In this document: positions 2,798 through 64,000 of the stretch, piece by piece | How positions within the stretch are numbered: the stretch's first letter is position 1 | Layout: the number at the start of each line of letters is the position of its first letter | Origin: a virus | Virus record (IMG/VR): IMGVR_UViG_3300024182_000001 | Span: 1 to 64,000 of that record | Strand: one strand, 5' to 3' | DNA: 64,000 bases | Made by a program: the position numbers and the translations under genes | The notes under the pieces: model-generated | What the model saw: only the letters and a program-made list of their open reading frames with translations | Told to the model about the DNA's origin: nothing | The model's database searches: none

Positions 2798-2812
2798 AGG
2801 TAGTATAGTACG

Positions 2813-47482: not shown

Positions 47483-48240
47483 TTGTTTCCTAGTACGTAG
47501 AGGAAGTTGGGGGAGTAGAATTCTGGGCTAAATCCGAGTGATGGCAGTTGCGAGGCGACTTTATTGATCAGGTGCCCATAAGCCGGCTCTTTATCATCAG
47601 CCTTGCAGAGAGCGGCGTACACGGCGCGCGAGATTATATAGTAGAGGTTGCCGATATTCTCGCGACCGATGATATCGAAATGCGTGCTGGCGAACGGCTC
47701 GAATTCTCCTATCCACATATAGCGGTTATGCCAGCGTTCTTCGATCTTATGCAGGTCGAATTGAGCGCGTAGGTAGTTTAGGCTATGCAAGCCGTCTTTG
47801 AAGTTTTCAACGAGTATGATCGTTCCGCCCGGCTTCAGGCACTTCTTCATTTCCAGCAGCGCCACCTGCTGTTCTTCCCAACTCGCGAGATTGATCAGGC
47901 AACGTCCGGAGATGATGATATCTTGGTTATGCGCGTGCTTCGATAGTTCCCGCACGTCGCCGACAATAAAAGCGATATCGGAGTACGTTTTTCGCGCTTC
48001 ATGAATCATCTTCTCTGAGTAATCAACTCCGACGAAATCCGAGTCACAGGCTTCCCAGAACTTCTGGGTCGAATACCCGTTCCCACACCCGACGTCCAAT
48101 ATCTTTCTTCCTGGCTCCAGGTGCTCGATAATCTTCCTGATTTCCAGGTCCCGATAGAAATGATCCGGAGCGGTGGCGAGATCGGACGCGCCATGTTCTT
48201 GCGCTTGGGCGTCCCAGAATTCTTTTACTTTATCATTCAT
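47479..48240 (-). CDS. class I SAM-dependent methyltransferase
   Basis: Motif I in ILDVGCGNG. Start chosen at MNDKVKEF, which is ATGA-coupled. Confidence 0.65.
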   Translation of the reverse strand: MNDKVKEFWDAQAQEHGASDLATAPDHFYRDLEIRKIIEHLEPGRKILDVGCGNGYSTQKFWEACDSDFVGVDYSEKMIHEARKTYSDIAFIVGDVRELSKHAHNQDIIISGRCLINLASWEEQQVALLEMKKCLKPGGTIILVENFKDGLHSLNYLRAQFDLHKIEERWHNRYMWIGEFEPFASTHFDIIGRENIGNLYYIISRAVYAALCKADDKEPAYGHLINKVASQLPSLGFSPEFYSPNFLYVLGNK

Positions 48241-48416
48241 TCTGGAAGCTCCACTTTGATCCAATGGGTAAAACCAGCTTTTTCTGGTTCTAGATAATGA
48301 GTAGCGCTGCTGGTAAACCACGCCACCGGATGTGGAGCATCTTTATTCCATACAAGTATGATGGATCCATCACGTGGAGCCGCGCAGTATTCCAGATTTT
48401 CCCATTCCCACTTCAT
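48237..48416 (-). CDS. small hypothetical protein (59 aa)
   Basis: My own translation gives MKWEWENLEYCAAPRDGSIILVWNKDAPHPVAWFTSSATHYLEPEKAGFTHWIKVELPE. ATGA-coupled on both sides. Confidence 0.3.
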   Translation of the reverse strand: MKWEWENLEYCAAPRDGSIILVWNKDAPHPVAWFTSSATHYLEPEKAGFTHWIKVELPE

Positions 48417-48928
48417 TTAAACCTCCCATAAAGCAAAGCCCCAACCGGGGCGTGATCGATGATGAATTTATTCTTCCGTTCCCCCTCAAGTACGAACCTC
48501 GATTTCTCAAGGATACGCTTCATCGGGATATTAGCTGCCGCGCACCCGGCTTCCAGTTTCCGTATCTGGCCGCCATCTCGTTGATCAAGTAGCCAGTTGG
48601 TAGCAGCCAGCCAAGCCTCGAAGCCATAGCCCTGCCCCCACACGTTCATGAACCCGATCATGATCCCGACGTCGGCGACGTTGTTCGGATGATCCACTTC
48701 TGCCGAGATATTGCCGATATGCTCGCCGCTCTTGACGGTGTATATGCCCCACAGGTATCCACAAAATCCGCTTACGTAGCGGTTCTGGGTACTGAGCGTG
48801 TGTTCCTTATGGCGTTGCTCCGAGAACTTTGTGACTTCCTTATCCCGGAGCCAGTCTACTTGACGTTGGGTGGCTTTGGTTAGGGGGCGTAGCGTTAGCC
48901 TTTGGGTAGAGATGGTGGGGACGATCAT
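48413..48928 (-). CDS. GNAT N-acetyltransferase (RimL/PseH-like)
   Basis: GNAT core GIMIGFMNVWGQGYGFEA. In the context of PseB, PseC and PseI it suggests a PseH-like role. Confidence 0.6.
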   Translation of the reverse strand: MIVPTISTQRLTLRPLTKATQRQVDWLRDKEVTKFSEQRHKEHTLSTQNRYVSGFCGYLWGIYTVKSGEHIGNISAEVDHPNNVADVGIMIGFMNVWGQGYGFEAWLAATNWLLDQRDGGQIRKLEAGCAAANIPMKRILEKSRFVLEGERKNKFIIDHAPVGALLYGRFK

Positions 48929-49413
48929 CAGAACGACGCGACGTTGACCACAACCATCTTGAGATCGCGGATTTTAGCCGGCTCCAGATACTCAGTGCGT
49001 TCCTTCACCTTCTTGTCGACGATCTTGACGCGCTTGGCGTTGTGGGCTTCCAGGATCGTCTTGATATCGATCTCGAAGAATAGTTCCTGGTCGGTCGCAT
49101 CGGTAAGTTTCTGCTCGCCGCTATAGAGCAGCGCTATATCGAGCGGCACATTTTCGTTCGGGTCGGCGATGAACACTTGCACGAGGCGGCGAGTGGTTAC
49201 GGCCATAAGATTTTCCTTCAATGGTGGTGGAATAGGGTGGGTAGCGTGTCTGTCTAGCGCATTTTTATATTGTTGAGCGAGGTTGCCATGATTTTGTGCG
49301 AGAGGGGAACCTACAATTTGCCCAGCTTGTGCTTGCCCAAAGCAAGCCAAGTTCATAGGAGTGCTGGCGTAGGTACTTGACGCGATGTGCGGGATATCAC
49401 CGGTTGCCATCAT
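48928..49413 (-). CDS. hypothetical protein (161 aa)
   Basis: GAGGCGAGGAAA RBS with ATGA coupling. An internal start at 49206 (also with a strong RBS) is an alternative. Confidence 0.4.
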   Translation of the reverse strand: MMATGDIPHIASSTYASTPMNLACFGQAQAGQIVGSPLAQNHGNLAQQYKNALDRHATHPIPPPLKENLMAVTTRRLVQVFIADPNENVPLDIALLYSGEQKLTDATDQELFFEIDIKTILEAHNAKRVKIVDKKVKERTEYLEPAKIRDLKMVVVNVASF

Positions 49414-49571
49414 TTCCTCGCCTTCTCAAGCGCATGGTCCGTCAGCTTTAACAGGCTCTCGATCGCCAGCCGTATGGTGGCGGCCGAAGCGTCGAAGTCG
49501 CCGATGATTTTGAGCCTGTCGCGTTCCAGCAGGAGCGTATTTCTAAGTTCAACGATTTCGTCGCGGGTCAT
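49410..49571 (-). CDS. small hypothetical protein (53 aa)
   Basis: My own translation gives MTRDEIVELRNTLLLERDRLKIIGDFDASAATIRLAIESLLKLTDHALEKARK. ATGA-coupled on both sides. Confidence 0.3.
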   Translation of the reverse strand: MTRDEIVELRNTLLLERDRLKIIGDFDASAATIRLAIESLLKLTDHALEKARK

Positions 49572-49906
49572 GGTTTACTTTCTGGGGTCGAATCGCTAGT
49601 TTTTGGTTCGTCGTCTTCGACAGCTATTTCAAGCGCATCGACGATAACTTTAGCAATACGATCGGATGCGCCAAGAAGAAATTTTTCCATCTGGATGGCA
49701 GTTTCAAAAACATGATCGAGATGTAGTGTTGTTATATTTCTGCCCTCCAGCTTATATTGCTGGTACAAGGCGCCATCATGGATGGTGTTCATATTGTGGT
49801 ATTGAATCGCCATGTTTAGAGCTAGAGCGGCGATACCATGCGCTGGCGCGATCGGCGCGTCTTTGAGGGCTTCCAGTTCTTTAAAAGGACGTTCTTCAGG
49901 GTTCAT
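49568..49906 (-). CDS. hypothetical protein (112 aa), first gene of the island operon
   Basis: AAGGAG RBS before MNPEERPF. The Arg-rich 42-aa extension in the ORF track is probably untranslated. Confidence 0.4.
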   Translation of the reverse strand: MNPEERPFKELEALKDAPIAPAHGIAALALNMAIQYHNMNTIHDGALYQQYKLEGRNITTLHLDHVFETAIQMEKFLLGASDRIAKVIVDALEIAVEDDEPKTSDSTPESKP

Positions 49907-50150
49907 GTTGAACTCCTTGCCGAAATTTCTTGCCGCCAATCGACGTGGATACCTTCTCGCTTCTCGTCCACGATGCGCCTTACGACCTCCGAAACCGACA
50001 CGCTGTATTCGCGCGCCCGCTTTTCCAGCCATTGCATCTGGGATTTTGTAAAAACGATGCCGCGTTGTATGCCTGTCACCCGAATTCTCCCGTCAATGTT
50101 AGGTTAGTCTATATACGGACTAGTCATCTGTCAAGCGGTTTGTTCCAAAA

Positions 50151-51818
50151 ATGAACGTTCCCCTTACTCCAAAGCAGCTCGCCCAGTTCGCTCAAGCCTT
50201 AGAGCGCCAGAAAATCGTCGATGAAGCCGAAAAACTGGAGGGATCACTCTACGAATTCGTCAAAGCAGCGTGGCCATTCTTCGATCCAGCCGATTTTCAG
50301 GGAAATTGGCACCTGGAAGATGCCTGCAGGCACTTGGAAGCCGTTGCCAGGGGGCATATCAACCGGCTTTTGATCAATGTTCCGCCACGGACGGCAAAAT
50401 CCAGCCTGGCATCAGTCTGTTTTATTCCTTGGATATGGGCGCAACGTGAAGAAGGCCCCCTCTTGGGGCCGAAAGTGTCGGCTTTTTACGCTTCCTACGC
50501 TGAATCGCTTGCCCTGGAGCATTCTCTTAAGTGCCGACGCCTCATCGAATCCAAGTGGTACCAGCGCCGATGGGGGAATCGCTTCAAATTGGTCTCTGAT
50601 CGCAATAAAATCGGGCATTTCGAGAATGATAAGGGCGGCTATCGCATGGCGTCATCCGTTGGCGCGCGGGCGACGGGCTGGGGCGCCTCACTTATCCTTG
50701 CCGATGACCCTCACCTTGTTCAGGAAGCCGAATCCGAGGTGGTGCGGGAAAGTGTGATCAAGTGGTGGTCGGAATCGATGCCCTCGCGCCTCAATGACCG
50801 GCGCACCGGGGCCATGATCGTCATCATGCAGCGTGTCCATGCTGGTGACGTAGCCGGCTACGTGCTCTCCGGCGAGATGGGCTACGTCCATTATTGCGTC
50901 CCCATGTGCTATATGCCTTGCCGGCACGTGAATGCGTGGGTCGGCGACCAGGTCCAAACGTTTTTGGGCGATGACGTCGACAAAGTGAAGGAAGAAGACA
51001 TTTTCTGGGTCGATCAACGTACCGAAGACGGCCAATTGCTGTGGCCCGAGCGCTTTCCGGCCAAGGACGTGGCCAAATTAGAGACGGAATTGGGGCCTTA
51101 CGGCTTTGCCGGGCAGTACCAGCAGAATCCAGCCCCCCGCGGCGGCGGGATCATTCGGGAGGAATGGTGGAAGGAGTACGACGACGAGTCTGGCGCTGAA
51201 TTCGGCGCCAAGCCGGGGCAATATCCGGCCTGCGAGTACATTCTGGCATCTCTCGATACGGCTTACACTGAGAAAGAGGAAAATGACCCGTCAGCACTTT
51301 CTATTTGGGGTGTTTTCCGGGATAAAATGTCCAACCCGCAGATCATTCTCATGTTCTGCTGGCAAGAGCGTATGGTGATCCACGAGTTGGTCTCGCGGGT
51401 GGGGGCGGACTGTAAACGCTTCAAGGTTGACCGGTTGATCATTGAAGACAAGGCGGCTGGGCACTCGGTTTCCCAGGAAATAGCACGTCTGTTTGGCAAT
51501 TTCGATTTTGGCATCGAACTCGTCAACCCGCGCACTGGCTTTATCGCTTCTCCGGATAAAGTGGCTCGTGTGCAGACGGTGGTGCACTTGTTCGCGGAAG
51601 GAATGATCTGGGCGCCGGATAAGAAGTGGGCCGATGAGATGATCAACCAGTGTTCGCTATTTCCGCGCGCTACTCATGATGACCTGGTCGACACTCTTTC
51701 CCAAGGGCTTATCTATCTCCGCCGTGCCGGCTGGGCGGTAAAGAAGGAGGAACGCACTCTTGAGATCGAGGATGAGCTGCGTTATCGCCCGAAATTTCAG
51801 CCGCTTTATCCAGCGTAA
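50151..51818 (+). CDS. terL: terminase large subunit
   Basis: ATPase Walker A-like VPPRTAKSS and Walker B LILADDPH. The C-terminal region is nuclease-like and rich in acidic residues. Confidence 0.8.
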   Translation: MNVPLTPKQLAQFAQALERQKIVDEAEKLEGSLYEFVKAAWPFFDPADFQGNWHLEDACRHLEAVARGHINRLLINVPPRTAKSSLASVCFIPWIWAQREEGPLLGPKVSAFYASYAESLALEHSLKCRRLIESKWYQRRWGNRFKLVSDRNKIGHFENDKGGYRMASSVGARATGWGASLILADDPHLVQEAESEVVRESVIKWWSESMPSRLNDRRTGAMIVIMQRVHAGDVAGYVLSGEMGYVHYCVPMCYMPCRHVNAWVGDQVQTFLGDDVDKVKEEDIFWVDQRTEDGQLLWPERFPAKDVAKLETELGPYGFAGQYQQNPAPRGGGIIREEWWKEYDDESGAEFGAKPGQYPACEYILASLDTAYTEKEENDPSALSIWGVFRDKMSNPQIILMFCWQERMVIHELVSRVGADCKRFKVDRLIIEDKAAGHSVSQEIARLFGNFDFGIELVNPRTGFIASPDKVARVQTVVHLFAEGMIWAPDKKWADEMINQCSLFPRATHDDLVDTLSQGLIYLRRAGWAVKKEERTLEIEDELRYRPKFQPLYPA

Positions 51819-51977
51819 AGGGTGTGAGGGTCCTTAGCGTCACGCCGTCCGCGCAAGGCATGCTTATGCGCGTCGTGGATTCCAACCACCACCCTCACAT
51901 TGGCCCGGACGCGGGCAACCTGATGGTACATTGCCTGCCTCCTAGCGCCAATCACTTTCTCGTGATAAACCCTTGAT

Positions 51978-54515
51978 ATGCCCGCGCCGCTTACCCTCCC
52001 CTTTAACGGCCAGATGCCGATTCCCATCGGCTCCGAGCCTATCGGGGGGCCCTTTGCCCCGGCTACGGTCGAAGTCCCCCACGATGATCCTGCGGTTTCC
52101 TTCAAGGACGGCGTGCTTAAGATCGACCATCCGGATGGGTCGACGACTATCGATTTCAACCCGGATATGTCCGACGCCAAGGTTGATACCAAGGACTTTT
52201 ACCGCAATATCGCCAACGAAATTCCGTCGGAAGACCTGGCCAAGATTGCCAACGATCTCCTGACCGGGATTGAATACGACGAGCAATCGCGTAAAGAGTG
52301 GCTCGATATGCGCGCTCGGGGGATCAAGCTCTTGGGCTTGAAGCTGGAAGATCCTCGCGGGGATCTTGGGACATCCTCTGCCCCCCTTGAAGGGATGTCC
52401 GTCTTTAACCACCCGCTCTTGCTGGAAGCGACCGTTCGGTTTCAGGCTTCAGCTTGTGGCGAACTCATGCCGGCGGCGGGTCCGGTCAAGGTGCGTTCCG
52501 ATGCCGTCATGCCGCCCGAGCAAGCGCCTCCCGCCATGGGCCACAACGGTGGTCCACCGCTAAATCCCATCGAACCCCCGATCGACGATCTGGCCGAAGC
52601 GCTGCAGAAAGACCTCAACCACTACCTTACCGTGGTGGCGACTGAATGGGTTCCGGATACCGACCGGATGCTGTTCTACATCGGCTTCGGCGGCGACGGC
52701 TTCAAGAAAGTCTACAACTGCCCGCTCAAGCGCCGGCCGGTTTCCGAGTCGGTGGATGCCGAGAACATCATCGTTTCCAACGCCGCGACGGATATCCAGA
52801 ACTGCGGGCGCGTGACGCATAAATCCAAGATGCGCCCCAGCACCCTAAAGCGTATGCAGATCGCTGGGGCGTATCGGGATGTGTCACTGGCACCTCCACA
52901 AGCCGAAGCTCAAACCAATCAGGTCGACTTGAAGAAAGCGGAAATAGCAGGCGTAAAGCCGCAGCCGCTGGATAATAAGGATAACGACTACACGGTTTTC
53001 GAGACGTATTGCGAACTCGACATCGACAAGTTCGCGCCCAAGCAATTCAAGGGCAAAGCGCTGCCGTTGCCTTATGTGGTGACGATGGAGAAGGAAAGCC
53101 GCCAGGTTCTGGCCGTGCGGAGGAATTGGGATGAGAAAGACCCACAGTGCCTTGCCAAGCAATTCTTCGTTCACTTCCCCTTTATCCGGGGCCTCGGTTT
53201 TTATGCTATCGGTCTCGTACATCTCCTCGGAAACATCACTATCGCCCTTACCGCTATATTTCGAGAATTCATCGATAAAGGAATGTTTGCCAATTTCCCC
53301 GGCTTTCTCTACGCCAAAGGAGCCGGGCGACAATTAAGCAATCAAATTCGCGTTCCTCCAGGTGGGGGAATGGCGATAGACGTACCTCCTGGCATGAGCA
53401 TCAAAGATGCGATCATGCCCATCCCATATCAGGATATCTCGGCTAATTTTGCTGCCTTTGTGAAGCAAGTTGAGGATATGGGACAGCGGCTAGGACAAAC
53501 AGCCGAAATCCAGGTTGGTGAGGGCAAGCAGGAAATGCCGGTTGGCACCACCATGGCGCTGATCGAGCAGGCGACCAAGATGCTTGATTCGGTGCATAAG
53601 CGCCTGTGTCGCGCCATGGCTGAAGAATTCGGGCTGCTCAAGGAGCGCTTCAAAGAAAACCCAGATGCGTTCGTTAAGTCGCTGAAACAGCCGACCAAGC
53701 CGTGGACGGGAGAAACGTTCAAGCAGGCACTGGAGAAATACGAGCTGGTGCCAGTGGCCGATCCGAACAATCCGACGTCGCTGCACCGGACCATGAAGGC
53801 TAACATCATCGATGGGCTGATTACTAAATACCCGCAACTGATGAACGCAATGAATGGGCTCAAGCGTATCCTGCGTACTGCGGGCATCGACTCGGAAGGG
53901 CTGCTCAATACCCAACCGGCACCGCCTCCGCCTGATCCCAGGATGGAAGCGATTGCTGCCAAGGAGCGGTCGGAGCAAGCCAAGAACCAGATCGCTCAGG
54001 TGCAAACCCAGATCAAGATGCTGGAAGCCCAGCACAATATGCAGGATTCGGCTGCTGAACGTCAGGTCAAGGAAAAGATCGAGATGCTCAAGCTGGAGGA
54101 AGGGCGTTTACGCCTCCAGCAGGAAATGATCATCCACGCCCATGAGATTAACCGTGACAATACGTCCGCCCAGGCCGATATAGAGAAGGATGCAATCAAG
54201 ACCGCGCACACTGTCATGATGGAGCGGGTCAAGGGCGAGAACGAACTGCAGATGGCTGGGCAGCGGCATCAGCAAGAGGTACAGACGCAAGGGGCGAAAA
54301 CCGCTATACAGCTGGCGGCAGAAGAAGCGCGGCACGGCCAGAAGATTCAATCCGAGCACGAAGCGCATGTGCAGCAAACGCAAAAAGACCGCGAGACTCA
54401 CGAGCAAACCCTGCGACATAAAGACGCAGCCCATGAAGCCGACCTGGAGCATAAGCGCGCTCTGGCAAAGGTCGCGGCAGCTGCTGCGCGGGCTAAGCCC
54501 AAGGAGAAAAAGTGA
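51978..54515 (+). CDS. portal protein candidate (845 aa) with a long C-terminal coiled-coil barrel-like region
   Basis: Lies immediately after terL. The size and a charged, helical C-terminal 230 aa recall P22-type portals. Confidence 0.5.
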   Translation: MPAPLTLPFNGQMPIPIGSEPIGGPFAPATVEVPHDDPAVSFKDGVLKIDHPDGSTTIDFNPDMSDAKVDTKDFYRNIANEIPSEDLAKIANDLLTGIEYDEQSRKEWLDMRARGIKLLGLKLEDPRGDLGTSSAPLEGMSVFNHPLLLEATVRFQASACGELMPAAGPVKVRSDAVMPPEQAPPAMGHNGGPPLNPIEPPIDDLAEALQKDLNHYLTVVATEWVPDTDRMLFYIGFGGDGFKKVYNCPLKRRPVSESVDAENIIVSNAATDIQNCGRVTHKSKMRPSTLKRMQIAGAYRDVSLAPPQAEAQTNQVDLKKAEIAGVKPQPLDNKDNDYTVFETYCELDIDKFAPKQFKGKALPLPYVVTMEKESRQVLAVRRNWDEKDPQCLAKQFFVHFPFIRGLGFYAIGLVHLLGNITIALTAIFREFIDKGMFANFPGFLYAKGAGRQLSNQIRVPPGGGMAIDVPPGMSIKDAIMPIPYQDISANFAAFVKQVEDMGQRLGQTAEIQVGEGKQEMPVGTTMALIEQATKMLDSVHKRLCRAMAEEFGLLKERFKENPDAFVKSLKQPTKPWTGETFKQALEKYELVPVADPNNPTSLHRTMKANIIDGLITKYPQLMNAMNGLKRILRTAGIDSEGLLNTQPAPPPPDPRMEAIAAKERSEQAKNQIAQVQTQIKMLEAQHNMQDSAAERQVKEKIEMLKLEEGRLRLQQEMIIHAHEINRDNTSAQADIEKDAIKTAHTVMMERVKGENELQMAGQRHQQEVQTQGAKTAIQLAAEEARHGQKIQSEHEAHVQQTQKDRETHEQTLRHKDAAHEADLEHKRALAKVAAAAARAKPKEKK

Positions 54516-54733
54516 TGCCCCACGAATTTCGCTCTGAAGCCAAGAAGTCACTTGGCGACAAGCTTGACGCCATGACCGGCAAGCGCGGGGAATACCCGCC
54601 CGATCGTGCCGCGCGCATCGTCGGGCCTAATCCTGGTGGCGGTCAGGGCGATGCTTCCAAGGAGCCGGAGGAAGTGTTCGCGGGCGGGGCTTCGGCGCGA
54701 CAGGTTTCGAACTATGGGACGGTTCGGAAATGA
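54515..54733 (+). CDS. small hypothetical protein (73 aa)
   Basis: ATGA-coupled to the portal gene. Confidence 0.3.
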   Translation: MPHEFRSEAKKSLGDKLDAMTGKRGEYPPDRAARIVGPNPGGGQGDASKEPEEVFAGGASARQVSNYGTVRK

Positions 54734-54889
54734 TAGAATTTCTTCGGACTCGAACCAAGATGCAGTGGGCGCTGGCTAGTGCTTGGGCGGTAGGAATAGC
54801 ACTGCTGGGTATTTCGGACCCCGTTTTCGCGCTTGCTCAAGTACCGCTTTTCTGCGCTGCAGCGTATCTCGGACACGTAGGAGGCTAAT

Positions 54890-55423
54890 GTGCACCCCTT
54901 CCATCAGCACAGCGAACACAAAAAGGGCCATGAGCGCGTCAAGCACATCATGAAATCGGGCGGTGTGCCCCATTCGGACGCGGCGGCCGACAAGAAGCTT
55001 TTCAGCAAGCTCATCTCTGAGCATGAGCGCAGCGAGTCAAAAGTTGAGGGTGAGAAAAGCCGGGGCCGTTTCGCTCGCGGCGGGCGTACCAAGCACAAGG
55101 GTTCTCAAACCAATATCGCGATTGTGGTCCCTCAAAAAGGATCCTCCAGCCCTTCCGAGGCTCCACAGGCAGGACCGGCCCCACCTCTCCCCAGCCCAAT
55201 GGCCGGTCCTGCACCTCCTATGCCCGGCGGACCCCCCGGCGGACCCCCCGGCGGACCTCCTCCGATGCGTGCCAGCGGCGGACGTGTCGGCGGCGACTCG
55301 TCAAAATCCAATCTCGACGGATGGAGTGCACGCGCTAAGGCGAATTCTTATGCGCGTGGCGGCCGGCTGCCGACGGCCGGCGCTGAGAGCGGGGTGGGTC
55401 GGTTACAGAAGGCGAAGAAGTGA
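54890..55423 (+). CDS. basic, Pro/Gly-rich virion-associated protein with three ARGGR-type motifs
   Basis: RFARGGRT, ASGGRVGGD and YARGGRLPT motifs, plus a PGGPPGGPPGGPPP tract. Confidence 0.45.
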   Translation: MHPFHQHSEHKKGHERVKHIMKSGGVPHSDAAADKKLFSKLISEHERSESKVEGEKSRGRFARGGRTKHKGSQTNIAIVVPQKGSSSPSEAPQAGPAPPLPSPMAGPAPPMPGGPPGGPPGGPPPMRASGGRVGGDSSKSNLDGWSARAKANSYARGGRLPTAGAESGVGRLQKAKK

Positions 55424-55605
55424 TCGAGAGCCGGCATTCTGGCGTCTTCAAGCGACTGCTTGCGGAGTATCGGCAAACGTTGCTCGAAGCAATGGTAGGC
55501 ACTGGAGATGTCGATACGTTTAAGAATTTGCGAGGCCGCATCCAAGGGCTGGCCGATGCAGTAAACCTATCTGATGCCGCTGACGAAGAAATCAATGGAG
55601 GATAA
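55420..55605 (+). CDS. small hypothetical protein (61 aa)
   Basis: ATGA-coupled. Confidence 0.3.
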   Translation: MIESRHSGVFKRLLAEYRQTLLEAMVGTGDVDTFKNLRGRIQGLADAVNLSDAADEEINGG

Positions 55606-56016
55606 ATGTCGATTGCGGTTGCCAAGAAGCTTGAACTTTTAAGCCAGGCTGATGATCCCCGAATGGCTATCGTCAAGGCGGTCGGTGACCTGGAAGACGT
55701 CGAGGTGTTTTCCGACATGGTGCTGGTCGGCACTTTTATCCGTCATGAGAAGACGGCCGGCGGCATCATCATGACTAAAGATCATATCGCCGAAGACATC
55801 TGGCAGGGCAAGGTTGGGCTCGTTTTGAAAACCGGCCCGCTCGCATATGCGGATTGGGAACCACCCGAAGATCGCGGCAAAGCCGCCGAACTCGGCTCGT
55901 GGATCGTCTACGCGATCAAGGACGGATGGGGCATTACGTTGAACGACGTCCCCTGCCGCCTTATTCCGTACGATAAGATCCGGATGCGGGTCAGCGATCC
56001 CAAGAAGGTGTTTTAA
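55606..56016 (+). CDS. GroES/Cpn10-like co-chaperonin homolog
   Basis: DMVLVGTFIRHEKTAGGIIM aligns with GroES [20 protein letters not shown]. A later GKVGLVLKTGP...GSWIVY segment matches GEVLAVGNG...GDIVIF. Confidence 0.5.
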   Translation: MSIAVAKKLELLSQADDPRMAIVKAVGDLEDVEVFSDMVLVGTFIRHEKTAGGIIMTKDHIAEDIWQGKVGLVLKTGPLAYADWEPPEDRGKAAELGSWIVYAIKDGWGITLNDVPCRLIPYDKIRMRVSDPKKVF

Positions 56017-57017
56017 TGCCTAGACTTCGCCCTATGCGAACTGCGGAAGAAGCGCTCGCGGTGCCGGCCGACGAGCCGGTGTTGATCGAGCTGACTTCCG
56101 AATCGAGCGTCGTCACGGCGCCAGGCGCCGAACCCGAGATCAAAGCGGCTGAAGTCACGGTCGGCTCGTCCGAGCCTGTCGTCGAAAAGACTGAGCCCGC
56201 TGAGGAGTCGCCTCTCCAGAAGCAGCTTGACGACATGCGCAAGGCGGAAGCCGAAGCGCGTCGCCAGCTTGCTGAATCACAAGCGCGTGAAGCAGCGGCT
56301 ATCCAGGCTGCCAATCAGCGCGGTGAAGCCCTCTATCAAGCCGAAGGCGCAAGGGAGCAGGCGCAATATGACGCGGTTCTCAACGCGATCGGGGCGGCAG
56401 AGTCGGAAGCGAGCCGAGCGGAAAACGACTACGCTGCCGCTATGGCCGCTTCCGACTTTGTGGCAGCCGCGGCCGCGCAACGGCGCCTCTCCATTGCCAC
56501 GACTAGATTGGTTCAGCTCGAAGATGGTAAAGCCGCCTTTGAGGCTCGAACGGAACCCGCCAAGCACGAACCATTAAGGCCGCAAGCTGTTGATCCGATC
56601 GATGCCAACCCCAATCTGTCGGGGAGGCAGAAGGAATGGCTTAAGGGGCATCGCGATGCGCAGTCAAACCCAGCGCAGCTTGCTCGGCTGGGAGCAGCAC
56701 ACTGGGACGCGCTTGCGGCCAAGCACCAACAGGATAGTGATGGCTATTTCCAATTTCTTGAAGAACGTCTGGGTTATCGGCAAGCTGCCAAACAAGATCC
56801 AGAGCCGGAACCATACAGGAGCATGCCGATGAGCGCCCCCGTTACCCGAGAATCACCCAGCATCAATGGTGGCTCCGTTCGTCCCACCCAGATTACGCTG
56901 AGTCCTGCCCAACGGGAAGCAGCGCGTATTTCCGGCGTTTCCGACGTGGAATACGCTAAGAACTATATGCGGCTGCAAGCGCTTAAGCGTGACGGCCACT
57001 ACCAGGAGCGCGGATAA
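56016..57017 (+). CDS. scaffolding-like protein (A/E/Q-rich coiled coil)
   Basis: Composition and helical character, and a position between the portal/GroES-like genes and the capsid genes. Confidence 0.5.
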   Translation: MPRLRPMRTAEEALAVPADEPVLIELTSESSVVTAPGAEPEIKAAEVTVGSSEPVVEKTEPAEESPLQKQLDDMRKAEAEARRQLAESQAREAAAIQAANQRGEALYQAEGAREQAQYDAVLNAIGAAESEASRAENDYAAAMAASDFVAAAAAQRRLSIATTRLVQLEDGKAAFEARTEPAKHEPLRPQAVDPIDANPNLSGRQKEWLKGHRDAQSNPAQLARLGAAHWDALAAKHQQDSDGYFQFLEERLGYRQAAKQDPEPEPYRSMPMSAPVTRESPSINGGSVRPTQITLSPAQREAARISGVSDVEYAKNYMRLQALKRDGHYQERG

Positions 57018-57631
57018 TGACTGAAGAAACCCCCAAAGGCGCGTGGCCGGGCCGACGCCCCAATCGCGAAGCCGTAAAGGAAATCGCCGACCGCGCGGAG
57101 GCAATGCCGCGGGCGCACTCGCTGCTTTCCAAAATGAAAGCGCGCCCCAATTGGGACGACGATACTGCCAATGAGGTGGGTGACGAAAGCGCTGATCGCC
57201 TCAAGATCCCGCGGGATATCATCGACAAATTCGCTCGCGACGGCGTCGCGCTGCAATGGATCACGCGGTCGGTGCGCGGCCAAGACGCTCCCCAGGAGAT
57301 ATCCAAATTCGTCAAGGGCGGCTGGACACCGGTGCATGCTTCCGACTTCGACGGGGCTTTTGACGGCATGTTCATGCCCAAGGGGTCGGATGACGTCGTC
57401 GGTGTGGATGACTGCATGCTGGTTGCTCGCCCAATGGAAATCCAGCGGCGCTCCAAGGAGCGCGAGCGCATGCAGGCGGCCGAACCGCTTCGGATCAAGA
57501 TGGCGGAGCTGGGCGCCGGGCTCAATATTCCTGGCGGCAACCATCCGACGGCTGTTCGACAGAATCACATCACAGTCACGCGCGAAGGGATTGCTGTTCC
57601 CGTCGATGCGCTTGGGCAACAGGATCATTAA
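57017..57631 (+). CDS. hypothetical head-assembly-region protein
   Basis: ATGA-coupled to the scaffold gene. Confidence 0.45.
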   Translation: MTEETPKGAWPGRRPNREAVKEIADRAEAMPRAHSLLSKMKARPNWDDDTANEVGDESADRLKIPRDIIDKFARDGVALQWITRSVRGQDAPQEISKFVKGGWTPVHASDFDGAFDGMFMPKGSDDVVGVDDCMLVARPMEIQRRSKERERMQAAEPLRIKMAELGAGLNIPGGNHPTAVRQNHITVTREGIAVPVDALGQQDH

Positions 57632-57632
57632 A

Positions 57633-57809
57633 GTGGATTCGGAAGATACCATATGTTCTGAAACTGGTTATTGCCAAGCAAGTCCTGGCGAGCGCGATAT
57701 AACCAACTGCGAGTTTTGTGGTAAGGAATTGCATGAACGTAATGGCCAATGGTGGACGTGGGATGCCGATCAATATGATAATCCATACCCACAATGCTTC
57801 GTATGTTGA
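57633..57809 (+). CDS. small Cys-rich (zinc-binding) protein, 58 aa, GTG start
   Basis: Sequence DSEDTICSETGYCQASPGERDITNCEFCGKELHERNGQWWTWDADQYDNPYPQCFVC. The RBS is weak. Confidence 0.25.
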   Translation: MDSEDTICSETGYCQASPGERDITNCEFCGKELHERNGQWWTWDADQYDNPYPQCFVC

Positions 57810-57961
57810 AGCTATTGCGCCTACTGAAAAAGTGGTGTAATTGAGTTCCATCAGCAGAGCGGCGCCCGCCTGCCGATCCCTACCTCCATCACGTGCCGTG
57901 ATGGTTCCACGCAGCCAAATCAGCGGAGTTCGCTGAAGCGGTTGGCAGCAGGAGCCGTCAT

Positions 57962-58633
57962 ATGGCTAACGTGTTGGAAAGCCCAACCAGGGGATTTCAA
58001 GAATTCGGCCGCGCTGAAGGTGGGTCCCCGACTGCGGGTATGACCCCGGTTTGGATTGGTTCGACCGATCCGGCACTGATCTTCCGCGGCGATACCGTCA
58101 TTCGATCGTCCAACAATACCGGCACTTCCGGCCAATACATCACCGCAGCGATCAACTCCACGGGCGGCCCGGTGCGTGGCGTGTTCATGGGCTGCGAGCA
58201 GTATATCCCGACTGCCGGCCGTGTTGTCTGGTCCAACTACTACAACGGTGTGGTCACGGGCTCGACCGGTGACGTCAGGGCATGGGTCATCGACGATCCC
58301 GCTCGGCTCTTTCTCGTACAGTGCTCGACCATCAACACGGTCACATCCTCGTATGTCGGCCTGAACGCAGGCTTTACGTCCTCGCTGTCGAGCTTAGGCA
58401 ACACCACCGTCGGCCTGTCGGCCCAGCAACTCACTTCTTCGCTCGTCGGGTCGACTGGCGGCCTACCATGGCGTATCGTCGACTTCTACTCGAATTACGC
58501 CCCGCCCGGCGTGCCTGGTATTGGCACCAACGCTTTCATCAATGGCACTGACAATACGACCGCAGCCAACATGGTGATCGTGCGACTCAACAACTGCGAG
58601 CGTCTCAATCTGACTGCTCCTAGCTCGGCATAA
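57962..58633 (+). CDS. virion structural protein (223 aa, S/T/G-rich)
   Basis: AGGAGC RBS; lies in the head/structural module. Confidence 0.45.
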   Translation: MANVLESPTRGFQEFGRAEGGSPTAGMTPVWIGSTDPALIFRGDTVIRSSNNTGTSGQYITAAINSTGGPVRGVFMGCEQYIPTAGRVVWSNYYNGVVTGSTGDVRAWVIDDPARLFLVQCSTINTVTSSYVGLNAGFTSSLSSLGNTTVGLSAQQLTSSLVGSTGGLPWRIVDFYSNYAPPGVPGIGTNAFINGTDNTTAANMVIVRLNNCERLNLTAPSSA

Positions 58634-58644
58634 GGGAGTTCGTG

Positions 58645-59043
58645 ATGGATATCCTTTCGCACGACAAGAAAGCCGAAGATAAGTGGCACGATCATCGGCA
58701 TCCACCGGTCGGCATCGGTTCGAGCGAGGCGATGGTCGTTACCAGGGCGTCGTCATATACGCTTCTGGTTTTGTCGCCGACGGTCGGCGCCATGGCGCTC
58801 CAGCTTCCCATCACAAATCCGTCTACGACAGTTACGGAGGGCTCGACGGTTCCGATCCCTCCGGCAGTCGTTGTGGGCGACGTGGTTGAAGTCTGCGTCG
58901 AGCCGGATAGCGCCGCCAGCGCGTATGTCTGGTACGGCGCGACTACCGCCGATTCCATGCACGGCAACTATGATGAAGTCAGCCCCGGAAAGTGTCGCGT
59001 TTACCGCTACGTGTCCGGGGCTGTTTGGAATCGGTATTCCTAG
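58645..59043 (+). CDS. virion structural protein (132 aa)
   Basis: AAGGGAG RBS placed 6 nt before ATG 58645. Confidence 0.4.
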   Translation: MDILSHDKKAEDKWHDHRHPPVGIGSSEAMVVTRASSYTLLVLSPTVGAMALQLPITNPSTTVTEGSTVPIPPAVVVGDVVEVCVEPDSAASAYVWYGATTADSMHGNYDEVSPGKCRVYRYVSGAVWNRYS

Positions 59044-59061
59044 ATGTTGAACGCCGGCAAC

Positions 59062-59892
59062 TCAGCTTTTTCTTGGTTTGCGCTTTTTGGGAAGCGCAGT
59101 CAGGATTTCGCTTGGGGTTTTGCCGGTAGCGGTTTCTCGGGTAATATGTTCAATAAGTTTGGCGTCAACTCTATGGTTTCTAGCGTCAAACCAGTCTTGA
59201 ATATTTCCCGCATTCGTAACCCATTCGAGGTTATTCGAGCGGCAGTTTGTCTTGTCTTCGTCTATGTGGTTAACAACCGGCAGGTTATCAGGATTTGGAA
59301 CGAAAGCTGCTGCAACAAGTCGATGTACAAGCAGGGTTTTTATAATACCAGCCTTGCTCAATTCGACTTTAGGGTACCCGCTTCCATCACTCCCGTTGGT
59401 GGTGATTCTAGCGCTCCAGAAACGCTTACGCCCAAGGGTATCTTCAAGGTGTCTTCCAACGCTGTGGATTCGCCCCAGGTTGCTGATTTGGTAAAATCCT
59501 TCGTATCCAGAGACGTCTTTCCATTCTTCTCCGGGAAGGCTGTCGGGGCGTTCTATCATTTTTGGAAAAAGCTCCATCACCGCTTTATCGACATAGAAAG
59601 CCCGTGCGCGCGGCTTTCCAGCAGGTTGATTAGGGATGGCCAAGTAGGCGACTCTAAATCCTTCGTTGATGGAGATTTTAAGCATGCGGCTACGTACGGT
59701 TCGTCCGGAACAATCCAGACGATTGAGTCGAAATACTCTCCCGAGGTTCGATACTTCGTAAATCCCCTCGTAGTTAGGAATAGGTTTCCATTCTTCACCG
59801 GGGCGATCATTGCGTGGTTCTCCCGGTTCAGTCGTTCTCTTTGTCAAAAGAGTCTCCCTTTCATGTCGATGATAGTATCGCTGCACTATCAT
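59062..59892 (-). CDS. HNH homing endonuclease with two NUMOD4 motifs
   Basis: GEEWKPIPNYEGIYEVSNLGRV and GEEWKDVSGYEGFYQISNLGRI match NUMOD4. HRLVAAAFVPNPDNLPVVNHIDEDKTNCRSNNLEWVT matches HNH_3. Confidence 0.75.
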   Translation of the reverse strand: MIVQRYYHRHERETLLTKRTTEPGEPRNDRPGEEWKPIPNYEGIYEVSNLGRVFRLNRLDCSGRTVRSRMLKISINEGFRVAYLAIPNQPAGKPRARAFYVDKAVMELFPKMIERPDSLPGEEWKDVSGYEGFYQISNLGRIHSVGRHLEDTLGRKRFWSARITTNGSDGSGYPKVELSKAGIIKTLLVHRLVAAAFVPNPDNLPVVNHIDEDKTNCRSNNLEWVTNAGNIQDWFDARNHRVDAKLIEHITRETATGKTPSEILTALPKKRKPRKS

Positions 59893-59965
59893 AGATACGT
59901 TATTGACGAAGCATCGTCAAGCACCAGCGCAGTGAGAAAGGGTGGATTCCTGTGCCAGTAGCATT

Positions 59966-59981
59966 ATCACAAATTCGTGAT
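59966..59981. promoter_or_regulatory. palindromic operator-like site ATCACAAATTCGTGAT just upstream of a TTGACT/TAAATA-like promoter for the capsid gene
   Basis: Same half-sites as the operator family; it precedes ATG 60030 by about 50 nt. Confidence 0.5.
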
Positions 59982-60029
59982 TTGTTGTTGCCAGGGCTTT
60001 GACTCTGGGGCATAGATGGTAAATACAAG

Positions 60030-60872
60030 ATGATCGAACGGCAGTGGCCGCAGATCTTCAAGTCCGTCGACTCGAACATGGCGCTCGAACGTCGTGTCGC
60101 GGTGCGCTTCCTAGGCTACGCGCAGCTCAAGAACGAAGGCGCTCCGACCGCCGCGGACAATAACGCCGGCCAGCGCTACGTGTACAATGCCGAACACTTT
60201 GAAATCGGTCTTATGTACGCGATCACTCGCAAGGCGATCGACGACAACCTCTACAAATCCGAGTTCGGCCCCAACAACGACGGCCTTATGGAGTCGTTCA
60301 AGGAAACCGAAGAAGTCTACGCCGGCAACGTGCTCAACAACGGCTCCGTCTATAACCCGGCCGTTCAGGGCGACGGTGTTGCGCTTATCTCGACCGCGCA
60401 TCCGATCGACGGAGCGACAATTGCCAACCAGCCTTCTCCGGATGTTTCTCTGAATGAGACTTCGCTGCTCAATTCGGCGATTGTCATCCGATCGACCTGG
60501 AAGAACAACGCTGGCCTGAAAATCCATGCGCGTGGGCAGAAGCTGATCGTGCCTCCGAACCTGGAGCCGATCGCCGCGCGCTTGTTTCGATCTGAGTTGC
60601 GAGTGGGTACTGGTCAGAACGACGTTAACGCCGTGCGCGAGATGGAGCAGTCCTTCAAGGAAGGCTACATGGTGTACGACTATCTCACGTCGTCTTTTGC
60701 CTGGTTCGTGCTGACGAATATTCAGGGACTTGTGTTCTTCCAGCGTAAGGCGTTCGAGAGTGACATGAGCGTCGAGTTTACTACTGATAACCTTTTAGTC
60801 AAGGGTTATCAACGCTACATTCCAACATATTTTGACTGGAGGAGAATTTTTGGAACCTACCCTACGTCGTAA
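60030..60872 (+). CDS. putative major capsid protein (280 aa), assigned by position
   Basis: Follows the scaffold/assembly genes and has its own promoter. It shows no clear similarity to T7 or lambda capsid proteins, so this is tentative. Confidence 0.4.
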   Translation: MIERQWPQIFKSVDSNMALERRVAVRFLGYAQLKNEGAPTAADNNAGQRYVYNAEHFEIGLMYAITRKAIDDNLYKSEFGPNNDGLMESFKETEEVYAGNVLNNGSVYNPAVQGDGVALISTAHPIDGATIANQPSPDVSLNETSLLNSAIVIRSTWKNNAGLKIHARGQKLIVPPNLEPIAARLFRSELRVGTGQNDVNAVREMEQSFKEGYMVYDYLTSSFAWFVLTNIQGLVFFQRKAFESDMSVEFTTDNLLVKGYQRYIPTYFDWRRIFGTYPTS

Positions 60873-60939
60873 TATCCTCTATTGACAGTGGGGTACATAA
60901 AGGGTATGTTGTCTGCATCCAGCAACGGAGGCGGACAAT

Positions 60940-61872
60940 ATGGAAACGAAAGCTCCTATTACTCATGCACGCGTTCGAGCACTTCTTGAGTATGATGCGG
61001 AAACAGGCGTTTTTCGTCGCAATCTTAGGAAATCAGATTTGCGCGAAGATGAGCCGCTTTCGCATGAGCGTTTGCTTCAAGTTCTCGAATATGATCCTCT
61101 TACGGGCATCTTTATCTGGAAAGAAAAAACAGGTCATAGATCGGTCATTGGAACTGAAGCCGGAACAAATAAAATTGTCACTAGCGGCGTGTATCGATAT
61201 ATCGCTGTCGACGGTGTCAGGTACCTTGCCCATCGACTTGCATGGTTCTGGGTCCGAAAAACGTGGCCCCGACTTCTTAAATTCAAAGACGGTGACTCCC
61301 TTAATTGTGCATTTGAAAACCTCGAAGATGCCGGAGAAGCTGTTGGAAGTGGTAAAACTAGTGAAGGATACGTCTACATTAGACTTGATGGCTCTGACTA
61401 TCCCGCAGCGCGACTCGCATGGTTTTGGACGTATGGAGAATGGCCGGGACTTCTTCGTTTTCGAGACGGTAATAAAGAAAATCTTCGGTTGGGTAATTTG
61501 CGAGATTCTGCAGCGGAGCCAGCGTACGCCAAAAGCGATCAAGAGCGGTATGAAGATCGAAAATCAGTGTACGCAAGAGATCGTGAACGGTCTCGAAATC
61601 TTGCATTCAAAAACAAGTATGGAATCTCACTGGCAGATTTCCGACGCATGGAAGCCGAGCAAAACGGCGTCTGTTCTATCTGCGGCCAACCGGAAACTAT
61701 CGAGCGTAACGGAAAAGCTCGGCTGCTCGCTGTTGACCACTGCCATGACACCGGCAAGGTTCGAGGGCTGCTTTGCGGGAAATGTAATCCGATGATCGGG
61801 TACGCAGATCACAGTATTGACATCCTCACGCGCGCTATTGATTATCTGAAGCGCACGAACGGAGCTGACTAA
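60940..61872 (+). CDS. composite homing-endonuclease-like protein: two degenerate HNH_3-type repeats plus a C-terminal endonuclease VII-type nuclease
   Basis: The repeats YRYIAVDGVRYLAHRLAWFW...DGDSLNCAFENL and YVYIRLDGSDYPAARLAWFW...DGNKENLRLGNLR parallel the HNH-AP2 protein at 45475. The C-terminus CSICGQPE...LAVDHCHDTGKVRGLLCGKCN is EndoVII-like. Confidence 0.6.
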   Translation: METKAPITHARVRALLEYDAETGVFRRNLRKSDLREDEPLSHERLLQVLEYDPLTGIFIWKEKTGHRSVIGTEAGTNKIVTSGVYRYIAVDGVRYLAHRLAWFWVRKTWPRLLKFKDGDSLNCAFENLEDAGEAVGSGKTSEGYVYIRLDGSDYPAARLAWFWTYGEWPGLLRFRDGNKENLRLGNLRDSAAEPAYAKSDQERYEDRKSVYARDRERSRNLAFKNKYGISLADFRRMEAEQNGVCSICGQPETIERNGKARLLAVDHCHDTGKVRGLLCGKCNPMIGYADHSIDILTRAIDYLKRTNGAD

Positions 61873-62891
61873 TGGGTATCACCGCAGTCTCGGGTCCGAG
61901 CATCACCTACGGATCAGTATCAACCTCGTCCGCCGGGACGGGGCTGCTCGGCAACGACATGGAGCATAACGATCAGCGCGCACCGGATTTCTCTGATCTT
62001 GGTTTTGCTATGCTCGATCCGCGGCAAGCCTATGCTTACAATCCAGGCTCTGGCGTCACGGACCAGTTTGTAGGCTTCTACGGCAGTGTCGGCTTTGTCG
62101 ACTTTGTTCCAGCCACGCGCTCGGATTCGTCCGCGACCGGCTCTCTAGTGCAATCCAGTCGCACCAATGCGGCAGCAGGAGCTGCGCTCACGCTCACGGC
62201 GGCTTCCACCGCACTCGGCACTTACGCGACAACGATCATCGCCCCGGAAACCGGCAAAGTAACAGGTACGCTCCTGGCGATTGATTCGACCGCAGCTACA
62301 GTCAGCTTTGGCCCGACCGGAACCGCAACGGTATGGAACCCCGGTGCCGGCACCGGTCGCTGCATTGCAATCACTACGTCCTCGTCAGGTGACGTCGGCA
62401 CGTTTACGATCATCGGCCGCGATATGTACGGCTATAAGATGACTGAGAACGTTACCGCCAACGTCGGCACCACCAACTCGTCGGGGTACACGGTTACGAG
62501 CCAGAAGGCGTTCAAGTACGTTTCGTCGATCATCAATACGACTACAACGACGTCGACGAGCATTTACGCCGGCTTTACCGACACCTTCGGCTTCCCGCTT
62601 TTCGTGCCGTATCTCGGGTTCAACGCACAAGTTCGGCTGATGCCGACTGCCTATTCGAGCGTCACTTATGTGGCGCTAATGTCTTCGGCTGCAGTGGTTC
62701 TTGGACAATCGAGCATTGCCACCCAGACATCGACCACGCCGGATGTGCGCGGTACCTACACATCCAGCACGGCCTCGAATGGCACGCTTCGGCTGCAGAT
62801 GCTGGTGACGCCTTGCGCTTCGGCAGTCGCCACGGTGACTTCCACCAATTTGTCGCCGCTGTTCGGGTATCCCCAATTCTCGTCCGTCTAA
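61872..62891 (+). CDS. S/T-rich virion structural protein (339 aa)
   Basis: ATGA-coupled. Long Ser/Thr tracts (TTTTTSTS, SSTASN...). Confidence 0.5.
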   Translation: MGITAVSGPSITYGSVSTSSAGTGLLGNDMEHNDQRAPDFSDLGFAMLDPRQAYAYNPGSGVTDQFVGFYGSVGFVDFVPATRSDSSATGSLVQSSRTNAAAGAALTLTAASTALGTYATTIIAPETGKVTGTLLAIDSTAATVSFGPTGTATVWNPGAGTGRCIAITTSSSGDVGTFTIIGRDMYGYKMTENVTANVGTTNSSGYTVTSQKAFKYVSSIINTTTTTSTSIYAGFTDTFGFPLFVPYLGFNAQVRLMPTAYSSVTYVALMSSAAVVLGQSSIATQTSTTPDVRGTYTSSTASNGTLRLQMLVTPCASAVATVTSTNLSPLFGYPQFSSV

Positions 62892-62902
62892 GGAGTGTAT
62901 CT

Positions 62903-63130
62903 ATGGCTAATCGACACAAGTTCGCCAAGGGCGGGCGCACGGTCTATTCCGGTAGCGGCTCGAATGTCGTCAAGGAAGCCGACAGCGACGCCAACTTCAA
63001 GAAGGGCGGCAAGGTGGCCAAGATGGAAGGCCACAAGGGTAAGCACCGGTTTGCTCGCGGCGGCCGGGCTGGCTGCGACAAAGAACCCTATAGCTCGGCT
63101 CATACCGGCCCATCCGGGGGCGGCAAATAA
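62903..63130 (+). CDS. small basic protein with FAKGGR/FARGGR motifs (75 aa); paralog of the 54890 protein
   Basis: AAGGAG RBS. Motifs HKFAKGGRT, FKKGGKV and HRFARGGRA. Confidence 0.4.
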   Translation: MANRHKFAKGGRTVYSGSGSNVVKEADSDANFKKGGKVAKMEGHKGKHRFARGGRAGCDKEPYSSAHTGPSGGGK

Positions 63131-63139
63131 GGCGCCGCG

Positions 63140-63475
63140 ATGCAGCCGGTTTACCTCGTCCGAACGTCTACGGGATCTTCCCCCTGGAAGCAGACTAATT
63201 GGCACTGCACCGGGCCGATGAATATCGGCGTGGCAGTTGCCTGCAATTCCACGTCCACGTGGCAGATCGACTATACGGTTGATGATCCAACCAATAACTT
63301 CCCCAATCCGACCTTGGGGTCCTCTGCGGTTACGATCTTCAGTTCCACAAGTGGTTCGTCATCGACATATGCCAGCTTCAGTACGCCCGTAGCGGCTATC
63401 CGACTGACGATGAATGCGCTGTCCAGTGCTGGCGGCAACGTGACAGCCACGATCTTACAGGCTGGCATCGGTTGA
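63140..63475 (+). CDS. virion structural protein (111 aa)
   Basis: ORF in the structural block; S/T-rich. Confidence 0.4.
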   Translation: MQPVYLVRTSTGSSPWKQTNWHCTGPMNIGVAVACNSTSTWQIDYTVDDPTNNFPNPTLGSSAVTIFSSTSGSSSTYASFSTPVAAIRLTMNALSSAGGNVTATILQAGIG

Positions 63476-63478
63476 TCG

Positions 63479-63494
63479 ATCACGATTTCGTGAT
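63479..63494. promoter_or_regulatory. palindromic operator-like site ATCACGATTTCGTGAT followed by a GGTGGAAC-TTCCACC palindrome
   Basis: Nearly identical to the site at 29414. The second palindrome (63500-63516) contains the origin iteron core GGTGGAAC. Confidence 0.5.
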
Positions 63495-63526
63495 ATAAGG
63501 GTGGAACTTCCACCGGGCCCGCGCCG

Positions 63527-63907
63527 ATGAGCGTCAACTATAACACTCCGACCATTTCCAACCGGCTTACGCAGGTTATCAACGGTATGGATGGGGGTGG
63601 GGCGGCAGGGGCGCTCAAGCTGCTGGATTCGGGCGGTAACGTGCTTTCCACCATGCCGCTGGCATTCCCAAGTGGGACGGTTGCGGGCAACACGTTGCAG
63701 TTCAACGGGCTCTCGCTCATCGACCCTTCGATTGCTGCAAGTGGGACCGCAACGGCTGCCCGGATCGATGATTCGAGCGGGACGACCATAATCAGCGGGC
63801 TTACGGTCGACAGCGTGAGCGGGGCCGATATCATCCTTTCACCCACGAATGTGCTGGTTGCCGGCCAAGTGTTGGCGATCCAAGCCGCAACAATTACAGG
63901 AGTTTGA
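63527..63907 (+). CDS. virion structural protein (126 aa)
   Basis: ORF downstream of the operator/promoter region; the structural block continues to the window end. Confidence 0.4.
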   Translation: MSVNYNTPTISNRLTQVINGMDGGGAAGALKLLDSGGNVLSTMPLAFPSGTVAGNTLQFNGLSLIDPSIAASGTATAARIDDSSGTTIISGLTVDSVSGADIILSPTNVLVAGQVLAIQAATITGV

Positions 63908-64000
63908 GGTTGGGAAAGCTGACACCGACATTTGCCGATCAAATGGCCGCCAACGGAAATGGAGCCGGCGTCGTTCCAGTTCACGCTATTGCACCACATG

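Follow-up and report, generated by a model that had tools for sequence, protein, structure and literature searches.

The window analysed here, meaning the whole 64,000-nucleotide stretch of IMG/VR record IMGVR_UViG_3300024182_000001, is a tailed-phage genome sequence of 55% G+C that also carries genes for virion/ejection proteins, an endolysin, a DNA polymerase, helicases, a primase, a methyltransferase, a serine recombinase and sugar modification. Reading of the plus strand revealed a GroES-like (Cpn10-family) gene at 55606–56016, which runs from an ATG at 55606 to a TAA at 56014–56016 and encodes a protein of 136 aa (15.1 kDa, pI 5.4) whose residues 47–56 are HEKTAGGIIM. The packing around the gene is operon-like: a Shine-Dalgarno-like GGAGG, seen on inspection of the plus strand, lies 4 nt 5′ of the ATG (55597–55601), the stop codon of an upstream 61-aa ORF (55603–55605) adjoins the ATG, and the GroES-like stop codon overlaps the start of a 333-aa gene in the sequence TAATG. 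Compared with the orthologue in the related locus L004, the gene differs at 80 third, 47 first and 36 second codon positions, and compared with that in L005 at 68, 39 and 25, respectively. Since third-position differences exceed those at first and second positions, the gene is real and is under purifying selection in the plus frame. We found at least 292 metagenomic homologues of the protein, and among the 120 listed nearly all are ~136 aa long. The original prediction of a 136-aa ORF was thus exact in its coordinates, and both the homologues and the codon-position pattern support a real gene. Two minus-strand ORFs that overlap it (55335–55733 and 55639–55785) were rejected, as conservation and the codon-position pattern fit the plus frame.

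The gene lies among head genes on the plus strand. The terminase large subunit is encoded at 50151–51818 (PHROG 38, E = 6.7e-90), followed at 51978–54515 by an 845-aa portal protein of SU10 type (Pfam PF23899, E = 4e-13; PHROG 1216, E = 2.9e-24; tblastn to phage portals). Four small plus-strand ORFs of 73, 52, 177 and 61 aa occupy the interval between portal and GroES (54512–55605); homologues of the 73-, 177- and 61-aa ORFs are detectable in the closest relatives, and the 177-aa product is basic and rich in Gly and Pro. On the 3′ side, a plus-strand gene at 56016–57017 encodes an acidic coiled-coil protein of 333 aa (pI 5.1; rich in Ala, Glu, Arg and Gln), a candidate scaffold. This gene always lies 3′ of GroES in relatives (synteny in 9 of 10 loci), and its product is 31% identical to the corresponding neighbour in MW202675. 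Searches of Pfam, PHROGs and NCBIfam for the scaffold label returned nothing or noise, and the sole phage-database match of the protein, “endopeptidase clp ATP-binding subunit C”, was judged spurious; the label itself is plausible. The original prediction had placed the GroES-like gene between portal and scaffold genes: its position in the head-assembly block holds, with the caveat that the portal gene ends 1.1 kb upstream and that the four small ORFs lie between.

Farther downstream, still on the plus strand, a conserved head-module ORF of 204 aa (57017–57631), whose start overlaps the previous stop codon by 1 nt, has homologues in 7 of 10 loci, and a conserved 223-aa ORF rich in Gly, Thr and Ser (57962–58633) adjoins the capsid gene on its 5′ side in relatives. 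In the window these two ORFs, which follow the 333-aa gene, are succeeded by an insertion (a 133-aa ORF and a minus-strand HNH gene) and then by the major capsid protein gene (59952–60872, plus strand; Pfam Phage_capsid_4), whose product is a candidate GroEL substrate. Neither PHROG scans of 30 large ORFs nor tblastn with E. coli GroEL detected a GroEL gene in the window, and a scan of 48000–64000 for promoters and terminators gave counts no higher than those in shuffled controls.

The capsid gene itself is anomalous. Starting from a GTG at 59952, it retains in frame the 24 N-terminal codons that relatives conserve (MPVALSQIRDLLLPGLWGIDGKYP). Six inserted nucleotides (tgactc) introduce a TGA into this frame at 60000–60002, and the uninterrupted capsid ORF therefore starts only at the ATG at 60030. 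The same phage is represented by an ENA contig that matches without a difference over 11,417 nt, TGA included; truncation with restart, readthrough and a shared assembly error are all possible. Homing-endonuclease genes flank the capsid gene, one of NUMOD4/HNH_3 type on the minus strand (59062–59892), with the 133-aa ORF beside it (58642–59043), and one of HNH/Endonuclease VII type on the plus strand (60940–61872). Both endonuclease genes and the 133-aa ORF are absent from the relatives L004 and L005. The G+C content is 48% in the endonuclease genes and 44% in the first 26 capsid codons, compared with 55–61% in the surroundings, and the region flanking the capsid gene resembles a tract co-converted from a foreign donor. 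Rfam (E ≤1) gave no match in 54000–64000, and thus no group I intron around the capsid gene.

Other features of the genome were noted on the far side of the module. Beside the terminase, a minus-strand block at 41443–48321 encodes sugar- and nucleotide-modifying functions (aminotransferases, a nucleotide-sugar epimerase, a dehydrogenase and methyltransferases) and may be a DNA or surface-glycan modification module; L004 and L005 carry acetyltransferases and methyltransferases at the same place. A serine recombinase/invertase-like gene lies at 38600–39277. In L005, a JGI contig, the terminase large subunit (2505–5315) is 936 aa long, and the window terminase aligns to its gene in two blocks ~1.1 kb apart, which suggests an intein or other in-frame insertion. 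A 71,657-bp ENA contig (ERZ27256733:k141_280774) with an identical GroES-like gene breaks off within the portal gene, at position 52584 of the window, whereas the window runs on both sides of this point. The window is therefore a differently permuted assembly, consistent with a circular or terminally redundant phage genome of ~70 kb.

The homology of the protein to GroES is beyond chance and spans the whole Cpn10 domain, and it is visible only at the level of profiles and structures. Identity to E. coli GroES is ~22%. A single-sequence phmmer search of the PDB returned noise (ribosomal protein S9, E ~0.4), tblastn of the window with E. coli GroES did not recover the ORF, the single protein scored 19.1 bits against Pfam Cpn10 (residues 34–71 only), below the gathering score of 21.1, and hhalign to E. 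coli GroES with a shallow alignment (A2, Neff 2) gave a probability of 1%. These four results are what would be expected if the resemblance were due to chance or to a shared fold alone, such as the GroES-like beta-barrel of medium-chain dehydrogenases, or if the protein were unrelated to GroES. An NCBIfam scan likewise gave no match for the protein or its neighbours.

Against that reading, every test at the profile and structure level converged on Cpn10. The only PHROG match of the protein was PHROG 3188, “co-chaperonin GroES” (E = 3.9e-6, residues 33–125). When the diverse alignment A3 replaced A2, hhalign of the family profile with E. coli GroES gave a probability of 94.5% (E = 7.5e-8) over GroES residues 2–95. 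An hmmsearch of the PDB with a profile of 120 family sequences retrieved 18 Cpn10/GroES/Hsp10 chains (E = 4.8e-7 to 0.08) and nothing else at or below 0.08, and Pfam Cpn10 (PF00166) was matched by 19 of 23 family members (best E = 6.1e-11). At the structural level, AlphaFold2 (AF2) modelling predicts a GroES-type beta-barrel: the top 36 Foldseek matches of the first model in the PDB were all Cpn10, GroES or gp31, the best of them being authentic co-chaperonins with GroEL-bound forms among them. The top Foldseek matches in BFVD were named “Co-chaperonin GroES [uncultured virus]” (E = 9e-9, over 119–139 alignment columns), several of these proteins being 139–155 aa long. In addition, the loop motif is specific to co-chaperonins. 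For practical purposes the PDB profile search, the hhalign result and the structural matches refute a chance or fold-only resemblance, to which we assign virtually no probability. A Cpn10 profile search and a comparison of an AlphaFold model with GroES and gp31 were among the checks that the original prediction had named, and both bear out its assignment of the protein to the GroES family.

We then divided the protein into four segments by alignment, column conservation over 135 family representatives and AF2 models. The N-terminal extension (aa 1–33; 55606–55704, plus strand) is specific to the clade described below and is missing from cellular GroES; it has two predicted helices (aa 3–14 and 18–26), conserved D17-P18-K/R19 and G27-D28-L29 motifs and a pLDDT of 86–97 in the AF2 model built from a deep alignment. 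The Cpn10 beta-barrel core covers aa 34–129 (55705–55992, plus strand) and includes a roof-length segment, G77–G97, which aligns with E. coli GroES and is 2 residues longer; in this segment AF2 gives short helical turns and no hairpin. Within the core, aa 47–69 (55744–55812, plus strand) correspond in alignments to the mobile loop. This segment has 4 residues more than its counterpart in E. coli GroES, contains a GroEL-binding-type motif, T50-x-G52-G53-I54-I55-M56 (55753–55773, plus strand), and has a conserved E63-D64-x-[YFW]66-Q67-G68-K69. Finally, a clade-specific C-terminal tail (aa 130–136; 55993–56013, plus strand) was recognized from column conservation: 99% of members have P132, and 77% end in an aromatic residue.

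The consensus of the loop across the 135 representatives is canonical, T-x-G-G-I-[IYFL]-[LRIM]-[PT]. T50, G52 and G53 are conserved in 77%, 83% and 90%, respectively, and 97% have I, L or V at position 54. Positions 55 and 56 are mostly hydrophobic, the former being I, Y, F or L and the latter L (43%), R (22%), I (10%) or M (7%), of which Arg is atypical; at position 57, P or T is found. In the window protein the motif reads GGIIM, where most of its nearest relatives have GGIIRP. In the AF2 model from a shallow alignment, aa 48–61 have a pLDDT below 50, as would be expected for a mobile loop. The deep-alignment model instead gives the loop a pLDDT of 90–94 with a predicted helix at aa 58–67, which could represent a bound-like conformation or true order and could mean that the loop is not free.

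An exhaustive profile search over 1.84 billion representatives returned 792 clusters (at 50% identity) with E ≤0.001, including 440 with E ≤1e-10. Nearly all of the top 150 clusters are 125–165 aa long, and in most of them the match begins at profile positions 1–16, so that the N-terminal extension is a trait of the clade. The protein belongs to a large, virus-specific “long GroES” clade. Because only 792 clusters reach E ≤0.001, cellular GroES would seem to fall largely outside this set.

To place the gene in its wider context, we compared the locus with those of its relatives: two long metagenomic contigs, MW202675, Pelagibacter phage HTVC027P, and contigs of bacterial genomes or MAGs (Rhizobium sp. 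BK316, two strains of R. lusitanum, a Rhizobiales bacterium, Ancylobacter, Methylococcales and Anaerolineales). Capsid identity across these loci ranges from 87% down to 36%. In all ten, GroES lies between the portal block and the coiled-coil and capsid genes, despite this divergence and despite insertions of mobile elements elsewhere. The full order of TerL, portal, small ORFs, GroES, coiled-coil gene, orf204, orf223 and capsid is kept in seven of the ten, and the shorter order of GroES, coiled-coil gene, orf223 and capsid in nine, down to 50% capsid identity. The most divergent locus, that of HTVC027P (L002, 36% capsid identity), has GroES upstream of the capsid gene; by tblastn only its portal, GroES and capsid homologues were detectable, and none of the intervening ORFs.

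Five of the related loci (L006–L009 and L011) lie on Rhizobiales genome contigs, namely those of Rhizobium sp. BK316, the Rhizobiales bacterium, the two R. lusitanum strains and Ancylobacter. Here the whole head module (TerL, portal, GroES, coiled-coil and capsid) sits inside contigs that range from 28 kb to 1.25 Mb, all but one of them at least 204 kb long. Given isolate contigs of 204–397 kb, these loci are probably prophages of the phage lineage, and we therefore infer that the host of the window phage is likely to be a rhizobial or other alphaproteobacterium. A megablast search of a phage collection with positions 50000–64000 found no close relative.

Taken together, these data are best accounted for by a phage co-chaperonin of the Cpn10/GroES family, from the virus-specific long clade, that would act as a heptameric lid on host GroEL and aid the folding of head-module proteins, a reading that we hold with reasonable though incomplete confidence. 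A lid on host GroEL during head morphogenesis thus seems the likeliest function. The proposal follows established GroES biology, in which the tripeptide after the conserved Gly binds GroEL (PMC5649160, citing Xu et al. 1997). The protein would be produced alongside the head proteins in the late phase of infection, and its heptamer would dock through the hydrophobic tripeptide of the loop on the apical domains of host GroEL. There it would assist or bias the GroEL-dependent folding of head-module proteins, with the ~304-aa HK97-type capsid protein as the most obvious client, one guessed from the order of the genes. The N-terminal helices, the loop insertion of 4 residues and the C-terminal tail would serve to adjust the assembly of the ring, the properties of the cage or the recruitment of clients. 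Some observations count against a lid. Arg occupies the third loop position in 22% of representatives and in most of the closest relatives, which is not the usual choice for a position that should fit into a hydrophobic groove, and the helix predicted at aa 58–67 from the deep alignment could speak against a freely mobile loop. The size of the capsid protein, which an ordinary GroEL/GroES cage could hold, and the sub-threshold Pfam score of the single protein also weigh against it.

Two other explanations were weighed. The protein might be a generic supplement to the host co-chaperonin that raises or sustains the number of lids available to host GroEL in infected cells, in which the host no longer makes GroES or a large set of phage proteins has to be folded; it would then have no particular tie to the capsid. 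The capsid protein (~304 aa, ~33 kDa) is small enough for an ordinary GroEL/GroES cage and needs no enlarged one, and GroES genes are spread over many unrelated phages, in some records with no more than a generic product name of the heat-shock or chaperonin kind; furthermore, GroES is among the most abundant viral genes in viromes (PMC5649160). A general supplement sits poorly, however, with a gene that never leaves the head module in ten of ten loci and that is tightly packed and overlapped with its head-module neighbours, and we judge this explanation unlikely.

Alternatively, the protein could be a head-assembly factor of GroES fold that works without GroEL, its ring or oligomer chaperoning or nucleating the coiled-coil protein, the portal or the capsid protein directly, with the N-terminal helices and a structured loop as interaction surface. 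This would fit the constant pairing of the gene with the coiled-coil gene, to which it is translationally coupled, the loop that is ordered in the deep-alignment model, the many members with Arg as the last residue of the tripeptide, and the stronger conservation of the N-terminal helices, loop insertion and tail than of much of the barrel. A canonical E-K-T-x-G-G-I-x-L/M-P kept across ~790 diverged clusters is nevertheless hard to explain without a GroEL partner, and the best structural matches include GroEL-bound co-chaperonins. Moreover, no Cpn10 that acts in phage assembly independently of GroEL is known to us, and we consider this explanation improbable, more so than a general supplement. 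We give an equally small chance to a bolder proposal, that the N-terminal helices, the acidic-aromatic helix at the loop base (E-D-x-[YFW]-Q-G-K) and the tail (P-x-x-V-[YWF]) of the long clade form a module for client recruitment or cage remodelling, or a ring acting in procapsid assembly without GroEL. If true, the module might serve as a physical link between host GroEL and two other products of the locus, the capsid protein and the co-translated, scaffold-like coiled-coil protein.

A GroES-like gene in a head operon has already been documented in related marine phages and viromes, which makes the present case a sound but ordinary find. It provides the correct annotation for one gene of an uncultivated ~70-kb phage that probably infects an alphaproteobacterium, and it adds relatives within Rhizobiales genomes to a viral GroES lineage already known from the sea. 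The long clade is very abundant, and answers about why a phage with a small capsid protein carries its own lid, and about what the clade's additions do, would bear on how phages exploit host chaperonins. The versions in Rhizobium prophages offer a tractable host for such work.

How does the protein compare with known co-chaperonins? It resembles E. coli GroES in its homology over the whole domain, its canonical loop motif and the roof-length segment between conserved Gly motifs. It differs in length, with 136 aa compared to 97, the additions being a 33-residue two-helix N-terminus, 4 loop residues and a tail of ~7 residues; its gene also lies in a phage head operon and not beside groEL.

T4 gp31 is the established phage-encoded lid for host GroEL and is linked to the folding of the capsid protein. 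As in gp31 and RB49 CocO, the mobile loop here is longer than that of GroES (by 4 residues), and a role as a GroEL lid is suggested by analogy. In T4, the rationale is a cage enlarged for the 56-kDa gp23, a client-size argument that does not obviously carry over to a capsid protein of ~304 aa and ~33 kDa. To our knowledge, gp31 has no N-terminal helical extension of the kind seen here. No gp31 chain was among the PDB sequence matches, either at E ≤1 with the family profile or at E ≤10. Furthermore, gp31 lacks the roof hairpin (PMC5649160), whereas the roof-length segment G77–G97 is kept in the window protein. Because no gp31 sequence match was found and this segment is retained, the protein appears from its sequence to be closer to true GroES than to gp31.

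The original prediction of a phage-encoded GroES-family protein in the head-assembly block, with a mobile-loop motif, agrees with profile, fold and gene order. Its further claim of rarity outside the T4-like phages is contradicted by podoviruses of the HTVC023P type, by the roseophages CRP-901 and CRP-902, and by a search with E. coli GroES that matched 123 of 50,697 phage records. The matches listed among these 123 are mostly from jumbo phages, with Vibrio, Bacteroides and Flavobacterium phages among others, and cultured phages with a GroES gene can fairly be called a minority. In 82 genomes of HTVC023P-type podoviruses, GroES belongs to a core of 13 genes (PMC9599517); it is also present in both roseophages (PMC10149686), and the GroES proteins of HTVC023P and HTVC027P cluster with the most abundant GroES clusters of viromes (bioRxiv 10.1101/2019.12.14.876532).

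It is these marine and virome proteins that the window protein resembles most. By tblastn it matches gp55 of HTVC027P (E = 3e-4), 023Pt_psg01 (E = 5e-4) and MW202675 (E = 1e-20). Marine et al. (2017) described virome contigs with GroES only, in which a “kinesin-like” protein comes next in 54% and, on longer contigs, a head protein then follows (PMC5649160). The arrangement in the window is the same, with GroES, a coiled-coil protein and then a head protein, and no GroEL alongside; the 333-aa neighbour matches the “kinesin-like” neighbour of virome GroES (PMC5649160). Polar or charged variants of the loop tripeptide, such as the Arg seen in many members of the long clade, are also described from viromes, 23% of viral GroES having a residue of this type at the second or third loop position (PMC5649160). 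The N-terminal helices, loop insertion and C-terminal tail receive no mention in that paper (PMC5649160), and they are the only descriptive points that are mildly new. The window phage stands apart from these marine examples in other respects. Its protein is only 29–35% identical to cultured or deposited viral GroES examples, its G+C content is 55% compared to ~42% for HTVC023P-type phages, and its nearest genome-embedded relatives are found in Rhizobiales and not in SAR11 or Roseobacter.
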